NCBI GenBank assembly: GCA_023264565.1
Contig: JAHFLV010000006.1
Span: forward strand, 1-37,717
From: Candidatus Zambryskiibacteriota bacterium
GTDB taxonomy: Bacteria > Patescibacteriota > Minisyncoccia > Phycocordibacterales > DATGWK01
Length of the DNA: 37,717 nt
Direction of reading: 5' to 3'
A program made the position numbers and the translations under genes. Positions within the stretch are counted from its first letter, which is position 1; the number at the start of each line of letters is the position of its first letter. Positions 7,659 through 20,154 of the stretch are shown here, piece by piece. Below the pieces are notes generated by a model. It did no database searches. It had not been told where the DNA came from and was given only the letters and a program-made list of their open reading frames with translations.

Positions 7659-8849
7659 TTAGGCGATGATTTTTGTTACGACGCCGGCACCAACAGTCTT
7701 ACCACCTTCGCGAATCGCGAATCGCTGCTTCTCTTCGAGAGCAACAGGGGCAATAAGCTTCACTTTGAAAGTGATGGTATCACCTGGCATAACCATTTCA
7801 ACGTTTGCAGGAAGTTCGACTTCACCAGTAACGTCAGTGGTTCGGATGTAGAACTGTGGTTTGTAACCCTTAAAGAATGGAGTGTGGCGACCACCTTCTT
7901 CTTTCTTCAAGATGTAGACTTCTGATTCGAATTCAGTATGAGGCTTCACTGAACCTGGTTTTGCAATAACCTGACCTCGAGAAATGTCTTCTTTCTTCAA
8001 ACCTCGGAGAAGAATACCTGCGTTGTCGCCGGCCATACCTTCGTTAAGAGATTTGTTGAACATTTCGATACCAGTAACAACAGTAGCTGATGTTGGTTTG
8101 AGACCGACAAGATCAACAGGTTCACCAACCTTTACCTGACCTCGTTCGATACGACCAGTAACAACAGTACCTCGGCCTTCAATTGAGAAGACGTCTTCGA
8201 TAGGCATAAGAAACGGCTTGTCGAGTTCTCGGACAGGCTGTGGGATGTAGGTATCGAGAGCGTTAGCGAGCTCAAGAACTTTCTGAGACCATTCGTCTGT
8301 GTTGTCTTTTGCTTCAAGAGCCTTAAGGCCTGAACCTCGGATAACAGGAGCATTTTTACCATCAAAGTTGTACTTTTCGAGGAGGTCTCGAACTTCTTCT
8401 TCAACGAGGTCGATCAATTCCTTATCAGGAACCATATCGCACTTGTTAAGGAAAACGATGATCTTAGGTACGCCGACCTGCTTTGCGAGAAGAACGTGTT
8501 CTCGAGTCTGTGGCATAACACCGTCAGTAGCAGCAACAACAAGGATAGCGCCGTCCATCTGAGCAGCACCGGTAATCATGTTCTTGATGTAGTCAGCATG
8601 ACCAGGAGCGTCGATGTGAGCGTAATGACGAGTATCTGTCTCGTATTCCTGATGAGAAAGATTGATCGTAATACCACGGGCCTTTTCTTCAGGAGTGTTG
8701 TCGATAGCGTCGACACCTTTAATAACAGCCTTTTTTCCCGCTCGGTTAAGAACGTTAAGGATAGCTGCAGTAAGGGTTGTTTTGCCGTGATCAACGTGGC
8801 CGATAGTACCTACGTTAACGTGTGGCTTTGAACGATCAAAATTTGCCAT
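7659..8849 (-). CDS. tuf: Elongation factor Tu
   Basis: 396 aa; [17 protein letters not shown] and NKCD GTPase motifs. Full-length EF-Tu. Confidence 0.98.
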
Positions 8850-8965
8850 AATTTTTACTAAAAATTAACTTTTAAATAATATTTGGTTTCGTTTCTTTTA
8901 TGCCAGACACCGAGAGTATTTCGTAGTGTGCCAAAACAAAAACGACGCTAAAAGCGGTACACAGC

Positions 8966-8993
8966 ATAGTATCAAAGGAGCTAAATTAGTCAA
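8966..8993 (-). promoter_or_regulatory. Sigma70-like promoter upstream of tuf
   Basis: Minus strand reads TTGACT-16 nt-TACTAT, immediately after the U-run of the preceding terminator. Confidence 0.6.
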
Positions 8994-9017
8994 GAAAAAA
9001 CCCCGCATTATGCGAGG
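8994..9017 (-). terminator. Intrinsic terminator of Cys-rich gene 1
   Basis: Minus strand CCTCGCA-TAA-TGCGGGG 7-bp stem (one G-U pair) followed by TTTTTT. Confidence 0.7.
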
Positions 9018-9062
9018 CGTTGTAGCTTTTTGGTAGACACCGCTGTGTTCATTGCCAGTTAT

Positions 9063-9602
9063 TTATGGACTGGCGGGTTGATTACAGCACAAACCGAGCA
9101 ATGCCTTGAGGTTGTTCTGGAGAACTCCGAGGGCGTGCTGCGTGCGATCCTCAACATCCTGAAGACAACTCACAAGTGCGGGCGATGGGATCGGGTTATA
9201 TGTCAGACAATAACAATAGGCGTCGTACCAATTCTGGTTAAGCTCTTCGAGGTCCTTGTAGTATTGAATAATCTCAGCCTTCACACAGTCACTGTCCAGA
9301 ATCCCTCCTGATGGACAAATGAAATTAGGGTCGGCGCTCAAAACCCATAAGAAAAAGTCCGTGTGGTACTGGGGCAAGAACGCGCAGGGATCGTCTGCGT
9401 TTTCAAGTGCTTTCACAAGGAGACCAACCCTTTGGGTGGGGTCGGCCTCCTTTAGTGCCTGGGCAACAAAGTACGAACGCTCGCTGTTCGGCACCAACAC
9501 CCTATCTGGCGGCATGGACACCACCTGGGCCGAGACCGAACGAGACAACGTTGCGACGACCGAAACCAGAAGAAGAACACGAAGATTAAGCTTCAAACTC
9601 AT
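9063..9602 (-). CDS. Secreted Cys-rich protein, family member 1 (hypothetical)
   Basis: ATG at 9602 is preceded by GAGGAG (7-nt spacing). Signal peptide ends VSA|QVV. Eight Cys including a CYC motif. By-eye homology to the ORF at 10812-11351. Own promoter and terminator. Confidence 0.7.
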   Translation of the reverse strand: MSLKLNLRVLLLVSVVATLSRSVSAQVVSMPPDRVLVPNSERSYFVAQALKEADPTQRVGLLVKALENADDPCAFLPQYHTDFFLWVLSADPNFICPSGGILDSDCVKAEIIQYYKDLEELNQNWYDAYCYCLTYNPIPSPALVSCLQDVEDRTQHALGVLQNNLKALLGLCCNQPASP

Positions 9603-9675
9603 GTGCAAACTCCTCAAAATGCGCGTCTCTCTCGAGAGATCGCTGTGTTAAAGAACGATTTGGATTCGACCCAGA

Positions 9676-9704
9676 ACACTACCAGGAATTCCCTTGATGG
9701 TCAA
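9676..9704 (-). promoter_or_regulatory. Promoter of Cys-rich gene 1
   Basis: Minus strand reads TTGACC-17 nt-TAGTGT, about 70 nt upstream of the ATG at 9602. Confidence 0.45.
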
Positions 9705-9715
9705 AAAACAAAACA

Positions 9716-10459
9716 TTAGAAACCGACAACCGGAGGAATTAAATCTCTCGTGGGTGGTGTGGTTATTGTTGGACGAACAGGTGGTATAGGACATTCTTGT
9801 GGCATAAGTTTCAAGGTTTTTGGGTCAACAGTATAACAAAACCTTTCGATTTCAGGAGAAATCGTTGGATCTACGAGATGACAATCGACTCGGAAAAGAC
9901 CAGACGGATCGCCCGGTAGACTCGGTTTTAACTCACATTTAACCTTCGGCAAGTAAGAACTTGGGATATCAAAAAACGGTGTTGTGACCTCTATTTTGCA
10001 AGGCTTGTCAGATGCTTCACAAGTAATTTTAATGACGTAGCAAACACTCGTGCGGTTAATAATCGTACAAAGACGAAACTCTTGTTTGCCATGTCGCACA
10101 TCCCCTTCCTTCAAACAGATTCCTGGAACATGAACACCGTTAGGTGCTCCTGGAAAATTTGGCACTGGAAAATATTGTGCGGGTGGCTGACACCAGTCTG
10201 GTGCGGCTGGGGTTGTTGGTGGTGTGGAGGATGGCTTCTCAGGGGGTTTTGTTGTATCAGCCTTTGTGGCTGTAGTAAACGAAAGCAACGAGGTAGCTGA
10301 TGAATTTGTGGAGAGAATAACAGAGGCCACTGCTTTTGAGTATATTTCTTTCTCAGCAACATTTCCCGAAGTGAGACGGACGGTAAGGTTTCCGGCAAAC
10401 ACAAGACATACAAAAACAATGGCAGCGAGTGAAAAAAATGAAACTAATTTTTTATTCAT
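9716..10459 (-). CDS. Secreted protein with Pro/Thr linker and Cys-rich C-terminal domain (hypothetical)
   Basis: 247 aa. N-terminal hydrophobic signal/anchor (LVSFFSLAAIVFVCLVFAG), a KPPEKPSSTPPTTPAAP linker, then about 10 Cys in the C-terminal 150 aa. Confidence 0.65.
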   Translation of the reverse strand: MNKKLVSFFSLAAIVFVCLVFAGNLTVRLTSGNVAEKEIYSKAVASVILSTNSSATSLLSFTTATKADTTKPPEKPSSTPPTTPAAPDWCQPPAQYFPVPNFPGAPNGVHVPGICLKEGDVRHGKQEFRLCTIINRTSVCYVIKITCEASDKPCKIEVTTPFFDIPSSYLPKVKCELKPSLPGDPSGLFRVDCHLVDPTISPEIERFCYTVDPKTLKLMPQECPIPPVRPTITTPPTRDLIPPVVGF

Positions 10460-10499
10460 TAAAAAAATTTATTATTCTAAAGCTAAAAATAGTATACAG

Positions 10500-10525
10500 C
10501 AAAAAACCCGCCAACAAGTGGCGGG
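10500..10525 (-). terminator. Intrinsic terminator of the lipoprotein gene
   Basis: CCCGCCA/TGGCGGG 7-bp stem, 5-nt loop, U6 on the minus strand. Confidence 0.7.
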
Positions 10526-10549
10526 TTTGAACGGACGGATACAAAAACC

Positions 10550-10738
10550 TCAGTTCTTGGGCAGATCGATGTGTTGATGCGTTGCCGTGACCTCGGCAGT
10601 CTTTTGGTCAGCGACAGCCTTGGTTGCCAGGAACAGCGTCGGATCGTTCTTGGCCATACAGCCCGGAAAGAAGGTGACGGTAGCGGTCATCAGAACGACA
10701 ACACCTGTCCACGTTAGAATTTTTATAACAACCTTCAT
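10550..10738 (-). CDS. 62-aa putative lipoprotein
   Basis: ATG at 10738 with GGAG upstream. Signal peptide ends in the lipobox-like FFPG|C. Followed by a 7-bp GC hairpin plus U-run. Confidence 0.55.
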   Translation of the reverse strand: MKVVIKILTWTGVVVLMTATVTFFPGCMAKNDPTLFLATKAVADQKTAEVTATHQHIDLPKN

Positions 10739-10811
10739 ATGCGCTCCTCTCTTTCTGAGTATTTTGAATATGTACAACCTCTAAATATTATGTATTTATA
10801 TCTACATTGTG

Positions 10812-11351
10812 TCAAACGCACTCTCCATTCTTAACCAAATAAAAAACCCGCCTGGAGGCGGGGTGCTTTAAAGCACATGTTTCACATTCGATCAGGGTAA
10901 CACACCGTCTGGCACACAACTCGAGATCAGCATCCGCCGAACTGAGACAGTCCCCTAATTTCTGAGGATCGTCTTCGTAGATTTCTCGACAATCACACTG
11001 CCTATGGCGCCATGCATTGAGGGAGGTAATGAGGTCGGCCACGTACCGCGTACGAACGTCGTCGACACAGTCTGGATTCAGATGGTGCTTCGGTGCCTTA
11101 CAGGGAATATCGACCAACGCGTACGAAAGCCATTCCATGAACTTGGGATACGTCACCGGGTCATCATCGCAATAAAGCGTCGGCTCCATGAGCGAAACAG
11201 CATATTCAAAGAGCGCAGACTCAGAAACGAAGTGCGCCCCAACTGTCGGTGGTGGGGTGATGATCTGGGCCAAGGATTTTTGTCCTGGGAACAAGACCAT
11301 CGAGGCCGCAATCACACAAGCAAAAAACACGGGGCTTAACTTCTGACGCAT
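10812..11351 (-). CDS. Secreted Cys-rich protein, family member 2 (hypothetical)
   Basis: ATG at 11351 preceded by AGGAGTTTGTG (same RBS context as member 1). Signal peptide ends SLA|QII. Conserved DDP, DCV and CxC (CDC) positions shared with member 1. Own promoter. Confidence 0.7.
   Translation of the reverse strand: MRQKLSPVFFACVIAASMVLFPGQKSLAQIITPPPTVGAHFVSESALFEYAVSLMEPTLYCDDDPVTYPKFMEWLSYALVDIPCKAPKHHLNPDCVDDVRTRYVADLITSLNAWRHRQCDCREIYEDDPQKLGDCLSSADADLELCARRCVTLIECETCALKHPASRRVFYLVKNGECV
10838..10863 (-). terminator. Intrinsic-terminator hairpin lying inside the last ~17 codons of Cys-rich gene 2
   Basis: CCCGCC/GGCGGG 6-bp stem, 4-nt loop, TTTTTTATTT on the minus strand. The ORF stop is only reached at 10812. 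Confidence 0.6.
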
Positions 11352-11418
11352 CACAAACTCCTATAAATGTACCCCCAACAAGGAGGCGTTACGAAAGAAC
11401 AAAAAACACAGACTGAAA

Positions 11419-11447
11419 ATGGTAGCAGAAGAAAAATAACTGGTCAA
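11419..11447 (-). promoter_or_regulatory. Promoter of Cys-rich gene 2
   Basis: Minus strand reads TTGACC-17 nt-TACCAT with the same CTTCTGC block as the promoters at 56-83 and 4087-4114. Confidence 0.55.
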
Positions 11448-11474
11448 TAAATATGTCGTACACAAAAACCCAAC

Positions 11475-11496
11475 AAAAAACCGGCTTTCACCGATC
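11475..11496 (-). terminator. Weak intrinsic terminator after fusA
   Basis: Minus strand AUCGGU-GAAA-GCCGGU (6 bp, two G-U pairs, GAAA loop) followed by UUUUUG. Confidence 0.45.
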
Positions 11497-11552
11497 TTTT
11501 GTTTTTCTTTAAAAATATTTGATCGCCCTAGAGACAATCTGCAATCGCGCGA

Positions 11553-13694
11553 CTACGCTCGTGCTGCTGCGATTTCGGCTTCGACGTTCTTTGGAACGAT
11601 ATCGTAATGATCGAATTCCATAGTAGATGAACCTCGGCCTTCAGACATAGATCGGAGCTGGGTTGTGTAACCGAACATTTCAGAAAGAGGAACCATCGCT
11701 CGGATAACCTTGAGCATTCCTCGATCTTCCATTCCTTCAATCTGTCCTCGCTTTGATGAAAGTGAACCAGTAACGTCTCCCATGAACTTTTCTGGAACGA
11801 CAACTTCAACTTTCATAATAGGTTCGAGAATAACTGGCTTTGCGCGCTTTGCCGCTTCCTGGAACGCCTGAGAACCAGCGATCTTGTACGCAATTTCAGA
11901 TGAGTCGACATCGTGGTATGAACCGAATGTGAGTTCACAAGAAATATCAACAAGTTTGAAGCCCGCAACGATACCTCGGTCCATCGCTTCCTTCACACCC
12001 TTTTCAACGGCTGGAATAAATTCCTGTGGAATAACACCTCCCTTGATAGAGTCGATGAATTCGAAATGATCGTATCGCTTAACGTTCTTAGGAATTTTCT
12101 TACCTTCTTCGAGTTTCTCGAGAGGTTTGATAGTGAGCTTTACGTGACCGTACTGACCCTTACCTCCGGACTGCTTGATGTATTTGTGTTCTGCTTCTGC
12201 AGCGGTGGTAATAGTTTCTCGGTACGCAACCTGAGGCTTACCGACGTTTGCTTCGACAGCGAATTCTCGCTTCATTCGATCAACCATGATTTCAAGATGG
12301 AGTTCTCCCATTCCGGAAATAATTGTTTCCATAGTTTCAGGATTTGAAGTGATTCGGAAGGTTGGATCTTCATCAGAAAGTTTCTTGAGGGCCATACCCA
12401 TTTTTTCCTGATCAGCCTTTGTCTTTGGTTCGATTCGGAGAGAAACAACAGGTTCAGCGAACTTAATAGGATCAAGAATGATTGGATTGTTTTCGTCGCA
12501 GAATGTATGAGAAGTTTTTGCAGTTTTCAAACCGACAGCAGCAGCAATTTCTCCGGCATAAACCTTCTTTACCTCTTCTCGTTTGTCGGCCTGAAGACGG
12601 ACGATACGGCCGAGTCGTTCTTTATCCCCTGTTGTTGCGTTGTAAATATATGTGCCGGCTTCGATTGTTCCTGAGTACACACGGAAGAACACGAGCTGAC
12701 CCACGAATGGGTCGGTCTGGAGTTTGAACGCGAGCGCAGAGAAAGGAGCTTCGTCTGAAGGAGCTCGGGTGATCTTGTCCCCCGTCTTAGGGTCAATTCC
12801 TTCGATTGGTGGAGCTTCGAGTGGAGATGGGAGGTAGTCAACAACGGCGTCAAGAACGAGCTGCACACCCTTGTTCTTCAAAGCTGAACCAGTGAATACT
12901 GGGATAAGCTTCACTGCCAAAACGGCCTTTCGCATAGTCTTTTTAAGATCAGCGAGAGACGGTTCCTTTCCTTCGAGGTACGCACTCATCAATGCATCAT
13001 CGTGTTCAACGATCTTTTCGATAAGTTCGGCTCGGTACTTCTTTGCATCTTCCATGTATTCCGCAGGAATTTCTTCTTCACGGATTTTGTTTCCCATTTC
13101 GCCTTCAAAATAGAAGGCCTTCATTTTCAAAAGGTCGATCACGCCAGAGAAGTTTTCTTCAGAACCCATAGGGATCTGCATTCGAACCGCGTTCTTGTTG
13201 AGTCGATCAAGAATAGATTTGTATGATCGTTCGAAAGAAGCGCCCATTCGGTCGAGTTTGTTGATAAAGCAGATTCGAGGCACCGCACCTTCGTCGGCAT
13301 AGCGCCAGTTAGTTTCTGACTGAGGTTCAACACCAGCAACACCGTCGAACACCACAACCGCGCCGTCGAGTACTCGGAGAGATCGTTTTACTTCTGCAGT
13401 AAAGTCGATGTGGCCTGGGGTGTCGATAATATTAAAACGCTGTTTGATAGAAGTGTCGGTTCCCATGTAGGTTGGGTTCCAGAAACAAGTAATCGCCGCC
13501 GCGGTAATGGTGATACCTCGTTCTCGCTCTTGTTCCATCCAGTCAGTGACAGTCGTACCGTCATGAACTTCACCGATTTTGTGTGACATACCGGTGTAGT
13601 ACAAAATTCGCTCGGAGACAGTCGTCTTACCAGCGTCGATATGCGCAATGATTCCAAAGTTACGAACTCGCTCCAACGGATAGTCTCGATTCAT
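11553..13694 (-). CDS. fusA: Elongation factor G
   Basis: 713 aa; [17 protein letters not shown] and NKLD motifs. Full-length EF-G downstream of rpsG. Confidence 0.98.
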
Positions 13695-14888: not shown

Positions 14889-15152
14889 TCAGGCAGTCCT
14901 CCGAAGACCAGATGGATTGGATGAAGGACTGGTCATCACGAACAGGCTTTCAAAACCATACCCCCACCTACGAAGATTGGCGGCGAGGAAATGATCTGAA
15001 CAAGACTCACAGCGTTCTGCGTGAGCCTTTGTGGTCTGGAGACATCTTCCCCTTAACCGCCCTTGCATGAGGCAGTTGAACCTCAAAAAAAACTGATCGC
15101 AGGTGCAACCGCCGATTCGCTTATCCGGATTGGACACGGGCTGAGTCTTCAT
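14889..15152 (-). CDS. 87-aa Cys-rich protein without signal peptide (hypothetical)
   Basis: ATG at 15152 with GGAG about 10 nt upstream. Pattern CxC...C...C...CxxC. Followed by a strong 8-10 bp GC hairpin plus U-run. Confidence 0.45.
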   Translation of the reverse strand: MKTQPVSNPDKRIGGCTCDQFFLRFNCLMQGRLRGRCLQTTKAHAERCESCSDHFLAANLRRWGYGFESLFVMTSPSSNPSGLRRTA

Positions 15153-19482: not shown

Positions 19483-20154
19483 TCACTTCATGACGACGAG
19501 TGGCGCCTGTCCCGCGTCGCGCACGATCTTGTTCTGACAGGTGGCGGAGTACGAGCTGTTTTCGTTCTGCTTACAGCTCTTCTGATCTTCACAGTCGCGC
19601 GGACTGCAGGACCTCACATCCACTGACATGTGGGTTCGAATGCACTTGCATTCCGTACCCATCACCTTCCCTGTGTCCACGTTGATAAGCAGGTGAATGG
19701 GGTCGGTGCCGTCCAGGTTCGCATTGTCGATCGTCAGACCAGTGTTGCCCGAAATGCCGAAGTTGAAGACCATCACCTCGCCGGTGGTGGGGCTCATGCC
19801 AACGTAGGAAATGTTCGTATCGGTGTAGCTGGACAGGTCGCTCGTCTCGAGCAACTCGCCGTTCACGAAGACGTACAGGGTGCCGTCGGACCAGTAGTGA
19901 TCCACGTAGTTACCGTGGAAATTGCCGCTGTGAATCCAGGGACCCTCGGTTGTACGAGCGTCGAGCATCTGACTGACCGTGACCCCGGGGATTGCCGGCA
20001 AATCCGGAACCGCCGTCGCTGTGGACTTCATGCTGACCGTCGGCCCGTTGATCGGGGTGACGATCTGGGCCGAAGTCTGTCGGCCGAAAACCGCCGTAAC
20101 CAAAACCGCAATCATGAAAGACGCCAAGGACTGCAAACTGATACGCTTCTTCAT
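19483..20154 (-). CDS. Secreted 223-aa protein with Cys-rich C-terminus (hypothetical), GC-rich island
   Basis: GGAGG RBS. Signal peptide ends TSA|QIVTP, like the two fusA-tuf island paralogues. Beta-rich middle region. C-terminal CKC plus four further Cys. Hairpin terminator. Confidence 0.6.
   Translation of the reverse strand: MKKRISLQSLASFMIAVLVTAVFGRQTSAQIVTPINGPTVSMKSTATAVPDLPAIPGVTVSQMLDARTTEGPWIHSGNFHGNYVDHYWSDGTLYVFVNGELLETSDLSSYTDTNISYVGMSPTTGEVMVFNFGISGNTGLTIDNANLDGTDPIHLLINVDTGKVMGTECKCIRTHMSVDVRSCSPRDCEDQKSCKQNENSSYSATCQNKIVRDAGQAPLVVMK

Follow-up and report, generated by a model that had tools for sequence, protein, structure and literature searches.

Two probable, anciently diverged members of a rare exported eight-cysteine protein family in the fusA–tuf spacer of a Candidatus Zambryskiibacteriota bacterium

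Ultra-small symbiotic bacteria rely on other cells, and the proteins that they export are mostly unannotated orphans. Here, we describe two such proteins, A and B, that are encoded on a 37,717-nucleotide stretch of DNA (termed the window) from a Candidatus Zambryskiibacteriota bacterium. It is likely that A and B belong to a rare and hitherto undescribed family of exported proteins with eight cysteines, and that they diverged long ago within it. Their genes are the last (A) and the first (B) of four that lie between fusA and tuf, so that the pair brackets an island, as a first-pass annotation of the window had proposed. The assembly to which the window belongs, as contig C9, totals 580 kb in 48 contigs and is estimated to be 92% complete; this size, and the 0.5–1.1 Mb of the genomes of relatives, agree with an ultra-small organism of Patescibacteria type.

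Both open reading frames (ORFs) are present on the minus strand and each encodes 179 amino acids (aa). That their lengths agree is a coincidence, as the additional length differs: A has 12 extra residues before its first cysteine, and B has a C-terminal tail of 13 residues. The leaders of both proteins, read by eye, are made up of a charged n-region, a hydrophobic core and a c-region of small residues, and end in VSA↓QVV (A) and SLA↓QII (B), which is the pattern first reported for them (xSA↓Q or xLA↓Q followed by [IV][IV]). A twin-arginine motif is absent from both leaders and export by the Sec pathway is therefore expected.

The evidence that joins A to B comes chiefly from intermediate relatives. 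A profile made from the alignment of their cysteine domains (A2) was compared by HMMER with 1.84 billion cluster representatives and returned nine proteins in all at E ≤ 0.001, comprising A, B, five relatives and two repeat proteins. The latter, a plant NLR-type LRR protein (P0003) and a C-type lectin protein (P0006), were rejected, their cysteine matches being amplified by repeats. The five relatives are small exported proteins with the same cysteine pattern (P0004, 135 aa; P0005, 139 aa; P0007, 138 aa; P0008, 155 aa; and P0009, 283 aa, with two tandem domains), and their library-wide E values range from 3.5e-7 to 9.5e-4. When the eight domains are aligned (alignment A4), seven cysteines are invariant (C48, C71, C81, C105, C107, C121 and C147 in mature-A numbering) and the eighth is found in most. 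The resulting family motif is C-x23-C-x10/11-C-x24-CxC-x14-C-x~25-CC, accompanied by the recurrent elements DP, HPxF..W, CP, LDxxC, WR and PxDP. A conforms to this motif with all eight cysteines and the CC at its end, and B has the first six in register with CETC replacing the CC. Comparison of all members against each other by BLASTP connects every one of them, with A matching P0004 at 6e-14, and B matching P0005 at 1e-9, P0004 at 2e-9 and P0007 at 6e-9. Given these transitive matches through metagenomic relatives, together with the seven invariant cysteine columns, A and B are, on the evidence of their sequences, homologous by way of intermediate relatives.

All members carry export leaders, as read from their sequences, and all are acidic, with a mature isoelectric point (pI) of 4.3–4.9 and a net charge of -8 to -12. 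No member matches Pfam, NCBIfam, PHROG, PADLOC or PDB sequences (the best E value being at least 0.02, far short of the cut-offs), no Pfam match at E ≤ 0.1 was obtained for any member, and nothing relevant to the family was found in the literature searched. The proposal that A and B belong to an unrecognised cysteine-rich exported family is upheld by the lack of matches in these five collections, and the family can be described as rare and previously undescribed, composed of small, exported, acidic, cysteine-rich proteins that are predicted to be helical.

Within this family, A and B are far apart. Terminal branches of the maximum-likelihood tree are about one substitution per site long, some of them longer, and the sole supported clade is that of the domain pair of P0009, and A does not group with B as its sister. 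The A–B pair is also the weakest of the whole family in the all-against-all BLASTP comparison (E = 0.04). The weakness of this pair and the absence of an A+B clade imply either that the split is old or that the two genes have separate origins, and A and B appear to be anciently diverged members and not recent duplicates. The ratio of non-synonymous to synonymous substitution between them was dropped as a measure because the divergence exceeds two substitutions per site and is saturated. The first-pass annotation had named A and B fast-diverging paralogues; the homology stands, and fast divergence is not demonstrable from such a pair.

Direct comparison of A with B gives a similar picture at lower strength. 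Six cysteines are in register with one single-residue indel (residues 73, 96, 106, 130, 132 and 146 of A; 61, 84, 95, 119, 121 and 135 of B), in keeping with the earlier observation that cysteine positions are kept, and random placement of cysteines reaches six matches in 29 of 20,000 trials. BLASTP aligns the two proteins at E = 0.006 with 26% identity over 110 aa, and the score of their local alignment is equalled by 10 of 3,000 shuffles. Among 5,119 stop-to-stop ORFs of the genome, each is the best non-self phmmer match of the other (E = 0.5–1.6). Taken on its own, the A–B pair is suggestive of homology and falls short of proof. Formal alignment favours the relationship through the family profile and the relatives, but the direct E value is only 0.006–0.04.

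The ribosome-binding contexts of the two genes, GAGGAGTTTGCACATG and AGGAGTTTGTGATG, are near-identical, as the first-pass annotation had quoted them, and the 580-kb genome contains AGGAGTTTG just 10 times, both strands counted. Identity between A and B is about 70% over some 50 nucleotides of 5′ untranslated region (UTR) and first codons, and about 40% in the gene interior. The 5′ UTRs themselves (9603–9625 and 11352–11372, minus strand) are identical at 14 of 18 positions (CATTT..AGGAGTTTG) despite the 26% identity of the proteins, and the ends of the two genes are more alike than their interiors.

The family has exactly two copies in its own genome, A and B, as judged from a cysteine regular expression and the family hidden Markov model (HMM) applied to the 5,119 stop-to-stop ORFs. 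Neither A nor B on its own has a match in 60 relatives, seven congeners among them, and the family profile drew no match from any other genome among about 1,100 sampled (400 from the class, 400 from the phylum and 300 from the order). Two marginal matches in these genomes were rejected, one being a helical protein with two cysteines (G422) and the other lying antisense to a 471-aa gene (G894). A word-indexed search of 5.8 billion proteins with A and B as queries returned the queries only, and the same search with profile A4 returned A and P0007 only. Four of the five foreign members are recorded solely in Logan assemblies; the cluster of P0008 also has members from JGI/IMG and NCBI/ENA. The contigs of P0004, P0005, P0008 and P0009 were not found in viral, genome and metagenome contig collections. 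Searches of phage and plasmid records by tblastn gave no real match, and no relative was found in 50,697 phage records or in IMG/VR.

P0007 lies on a phage-like contig of closely packed co-directional genes. It is flanked on one side by a family-A DNA polymerase (phrog_17, 9e-69) and on the other by a Holliday-junction resolvase (phrog_1770), and it overlaps its neighbours on either side (ATGA type), at the stop of the gene before it and at the start of the resolvase gene after it. These overlaps indicate that P0007 belongs integrally to a replication operon, in which it is translationally coupled, and is no moron. The closest matches of the polymerase, at 29% identity, are polymerases of Pseudomonas and Rhizobium phages, and on this ground Actinobacteria were rejected as the host of the phage. 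The similarity of P0007 to B is the sole link of this contig to the genome studied here, apart from the polymerase, which matches a chromosomal polymerase on contig C4.

The order of transcription on the minus strand is rpsL, rpsG, fusA (11553–13694), B, D, C, A and tuf (7659–8849). In two congeners the fusA–tuf spacer measures 295 bp (G007) and 236 bp (G004) and is made up of the fusA terminator and, after it, the promoter and leader of tuf; both spacers align to the two edges of the island in the window, with nothing between. Since terminator and promoter are conserved in the congeners without intervening DNA, the insert can be placed exactly between them (table 1). Direct repeats flanking the island were looked for and, as none was found, were rejected as a feature of it. 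DNA identical to positions 8806–10370, including a copy of A, is present on an independent Logan assembly contig. The GC content at third codon positions (GC3) is 0.59 in A, 0.57 in B, 0.62 in D and 0.33 in C, set against a mean of 0.41 for the long ORFs of the genome (standard deviation 0.06, 95th percentile 0.54). By this measure A, B and D look foreign and may have been horizontally acquired, and the low value of C relative to its neighbours in the island suggests a separate origin for that gene.

Within this order, insertions recur in the fusA–tuf spacer. Its cargo in other genera includes prephenate dehydrogenase and chorismate mutase in G017 (L033, G017:C1 6876–8805), a secreted Amidase_3/PG_binding_1 protein in G012 (L034, G012:C5 1197–2760) and ORFs on the opposite strand in G009 (L031, G009:C3 1356–3366). 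Three congeners (G002:C15, G001:C50 and G003:C24/C10) have an assembly break inside tuf or directly upstream of it, and such breaks could reflect content at this site that varies between strains.

The two genes between B and A are not related to them in any detectable way. D encodes a short lipoprotein-like peptide for which no family match was found. Protein C, an orphan with no counterpart in 60 relatives, gives an hhalign probability of 0.4% when compared with the family, and its gene has no obvious Shine–Dalgarno (SD) sequence. A consensus scan found no promoter for A.

B departs from its relatives at the 3′ end. Family members usually end a few residues after the CC, and B instead continues from CETC into its 13-residue tail, which brings an eleventh, unpaired cysteine. 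A terminator-like hairpin is found within the last 17 codons of the reading frame (the region 10812–10866, minus strand), and the frame runs on to a TGA that forms part of the -35 element (TTGACA) of the D promoter. Transcripts that terminate at this hairpin would have no stop codon. Decay or remodelling of the B copy may explain this, as may the loss of its own stop codon.

The N-terminal region of A and B has a further peculiarity. A leader ending in AQ[IV][IV][ST]xP is common to A, B and an unrelated 223-aa protein encoded at 19483–20154, and is found at no other N-terminus in the genome. At the DNA level, B and the gene of the 223-aa protein have GGCCCAGATCRTCACCCC in common, and also share GGCCCAGATC(A/G)TCACCCC and TGATTGCGG. 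In other genomes, the relatives of this 223-aa protein are without the QIVTP part.

Table 1. Positions of the features discussed, in window coordinates unless another contig is named.
Feature	Position	Strand	Details
Insert	8994-11472	-	~2.48 kb, four exported-protein genes B, D, C, A
fusA terminator hairpin	11472-11503	-	conserved in congeners; -18.1 kcal/mol, z = -5.2; left insert edge
tuf promoter-like site, TTGACT-16-TACTAT	8966-8993	-	conserved in congeners; right insert edge
Putative sigma-70-like promoter of B, TTGACC-17-TACCAT	11419-11447	-	consensus scan
SD of B, AGGAG	11362-11358	-	sequence
Gene B	10812-11351	-	179 aa + stop; mature 151 aa, 11 Cys
Leader of B	residues 1-28 = 11351-11268	-	read from sequence
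Terminator-like hairpin in B, CCCGCC-TCCA-GGCGGG + U-run	10837-10862 (stem 10862-10847)	-	-12.1 kcal/mol, similar to that after A
Promoter-like site of D, TTGACA-17-CATAAT	10787-10815	-	11/12 matches; -35 holds the TGA stop of B
Gene D	10550-10738	-	62-aa lipoprotein-like peptide, leader ending FFPG↓C, own SD
Predicted terminator of D	10504-10528	-	-16.5 kcal/mol, z = -3.5
Gene C	9716-10459	-	247 aa; N-terminal hydrophobic leader or anchor, Pro/Thr-rich linker, 10-Cys domain
SD of A, GAGGAG	9615-9610	-	sequence
Gene A	9063-9602	-	179 aa + stop; mature 154 aa, 8 Cys
Leader of A	residues 1-25 = 9602-9528	-	read from sequence
Terminator-like hairpin after A	9000-9018	-	intrinsic type; -11.5 kcal/mol
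Shared leader sites	9528-9545, 11250-11270, 20050-20070	-	A, B, 223-aa gene
DsbA-like (PF13462, 104 bits) and adjacent VKOR (PF07884, 84 bits)	G000:C30:3044-3995	+	profile matches
P0007	L035 5497-5913	+	6.4-kb phage-like contig, 57% GC

The positions of the cysteines suggest how such proteins might be held together. In AlphaFold2 models of A and B, two short N-terminal helices precede two helices of about 30 residues; the third cysteine (C3) opens the first long helix and the CxC closes it, while the sixth (C6) opens the second and the CC lies just past its end. An antiparallel hairpin of this kind would place C3 beside the CC and the CxC beside C6. We infer a doubly stapled alpha-hairpin, with two spare cysteines tethering the first and second (C1 and C2). 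The presence of a VKOR and a DsbA-like protein, encoded side by side in a genome of 0.58 Mb, makes oxidative folding outside the cytoplasm plausible. In the pathway that we propose, A and B would be exported by Sec, cleaved at VSA↓Q or SLA↓Q and oxidised by the DsbA-like/VKOR pair. Cysteines at either end of each long helix would staple a long alpha-hairpin, the remaining cysteines would tie down the N-terminal helices, and the outcome would be a stable extracellular protein.

Several points weigh against this account of A and B as ancient members of one family of stapled exported proteins. The direct similarity between the two is weak and is mostly carried by cysteines; replacing cysteine by serine lowers the A–B z-score to 1.3, at which significance is lost. 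Confidence in the models is low (mean predicted local distance difference test score of 62 for A and 55 for B), and a Foldseek comparison of model A with PDB and BFVD found only generic helical bundles at E > 0.08. Disulfides, export and expression of A and B are predictions; for disulfide formation, the genome has the machinery genes. The odd number of cysteines in mature B, 11, together with the hairpin inside its reading frame, indicates that B may be decaying, and the deviant GC3 of C indicates that the insert may be a mosaic and not one acquisition. The genomic context of foreign members is known for P0007 only, one of five. Finally, a binding or inhibitor role, discussed below, is a guess.

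That A and B are unrelated cysteine-rich orphan ORFs that resemble each other by chance is scarcely credible. The modest BLASTP and phmmer E values, and the disappearance of the signal once cysteines are masked, are what chance would predict, yet the transitive matches through P0004 (6e-14 to A and 2e-9 to B), the seven cysteine columns invariant in eight domains and the standing of A and B as reciprocal best matches effectively refute it. The first-pass annotation had gone further in the opposite direction and proposed an expanding, fast-diverging secreted family of four, with the 223-aa protein and an 87-aa ORF (14889–15152) as additional members on account of a CxC motif, acting as effectors, adhesins or bacteriocins. 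The homology and export of A and B agree with this, as does the leader that they have in common with the 223-aa protein. Against it, hhalign gives the 223-aa and 87-aa proteins probabilities of 0.3% and 0.05% of belonging with the family, the family HMM matches A and B only, and the CxC of the 223-aa protein is kept in its relatives (three genomes) within a different domain. The family of four is already refuted by these comparisons, and with a count of two copies the genome holds no expansion; as A and B are moreover the most distant pair and every member is acidic, the proposal as a whole is very unlikely to be right. The acidity also weakens the suggestion of bacteriocin-like proteins, and a role as effector or adhesin is a guess. 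A related idea, in which B is a secreted toxin or bacteriocin and the adjacent lipoprotein D its immunity protein, draws on the position of a small exported cysteine-rich protein next to a tiny membrane-anchored one. It has little chance of being correct, since all members carry a net negative charge, A has no such partner, a processing or export gene is absent nearby and no bacteriocin family is matched.

Two further explanations concern what the cysteines and the island are for. The cysteines could hold Zn, Cu or Fe-S in two Cys4 clusters at the hairpin ends and form no disulfides; CxC and CC are common in Cu(I) and Zn sites, and the modelled cysteines do fall into two groups of four at the helix ends. 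Sec-type leaders and the DsbA-like/VKOR oxidation pair speak against metal binding, as do the lack of Pfam matches to metal-storage or chaperone families and the absence of conserved histidine or methionine beside the cysteines, and we regard it as highly improbable. A, B and perhaps D might also be phage-derived exclusion cassettes, moron-like units whose products mask receptors or block phage entry. One family member, P0007, is a phage gene and is linked to this genome through B; a promoter-like site, an SD sequence and a terminator-like hairpin accompany both B and D, and the last two of these also A; and the composition is foreign at a site that is an insertion hot spot. However, no PHROG or PADLOC match and no relative in the phage records or IMG/VR was found, the phage copy sits in a replication operon and is not a moron, and neither an integrase nor other phage genes occur near the island. 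On balance exclusion cassettes are unlikely.

With A and B taken as anciently diverged members of an exported eight-cysteine family, their role can be addressed with more caution. The acidity of all members argues against a cationic membrane-active peptide and fits a soluble binding, masking or inhibitor protein. Tentatively, the acidic mature proteins could serve as binding, masking or inhibitor modules at the cell surface or where the cell meets its host bacterium or phage, carried as horizontally mobile accessory cassettes; the role itself is a guess, and it may well be wrong. A more specific and rather improbable version is that the stapled eight-cysteine hairpin is a mobile, phage-linked exported module, captured twice or kept as two ancient copies, which would bind or neutralise a basic partner (for example a cell-wall hydrolase or a receptor) where this ultra-small, epibiont-type bacterium meets its host bacterium or phages.

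Several known systems resemble the A/B family in part. The twin-Cx9C/CHCH proteins (for example Cox17 and other substrates of Mia40) have an alpha-hairpin with cysteines near both helix ends, as is predicted for the A/B family, in which such cysteines would staple the hairpin; the resemblance is one of principle only. The A/B family differs in having spacings of x24 and x25 in place of x9, eight cysteines including CxC and CC, and a Sec leader, and in coming from bacteria or phage, and with these spacings and no Pfam match it was not assigned to that group. The plant eight-cysteine motif (8CM) proteins, which include non-specific lipid-transfer proteins (nsLTP) and 2S albumins, are likewise small, secreted and all-alpha, with eight cysteines that include CxC and CC. 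Their motif runs C..C..CC..CxC..C..C, whereas that of the A/B family runs C-C-C-CxC-C-CC with the CC at the C-terminus, the helices are much longer and the proteins are prokaryotic or from phage; given the different motif order and the absence of a Pfam match, membership was rejected here too. Phage morons and superinfection-exclusion lipoproteins (Llp, Ltp and Cor) are, like A and B, small exported accessory proteins on promoter–ORF–terminator units. The A/B family has no sequence or profile similarity to them, and P0007 is not organised as a moron. The insert also recalls the hypervariable exported-protein islets of ultra-small, Patescibacteria-type genomes, in which lineage-specific cargo occupies a fixed intergenic site between conserved housekeeping genes, but here a cross-lineage protein family that can be defined, and that has a member in a phage, forms part of the cargo.

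Few of the orphan exported proteins of ultra-small symbiotic bacteria can be assigned, as A and B can, to a recognisable family with members in more than one lineage. Its clear cysteine signature and probable fold principle, together with a relative encoded by a phage and an insertion site that is mapped precisely, make this family tractable for study, and the fusA–tuf spacer is documented as a recurrent landing site of unrelated cargo in this lineage. If true, the reading of A and B as mobile modules would mean that they represent a new class of protein, with a part in extracellular interaction or in immunity.

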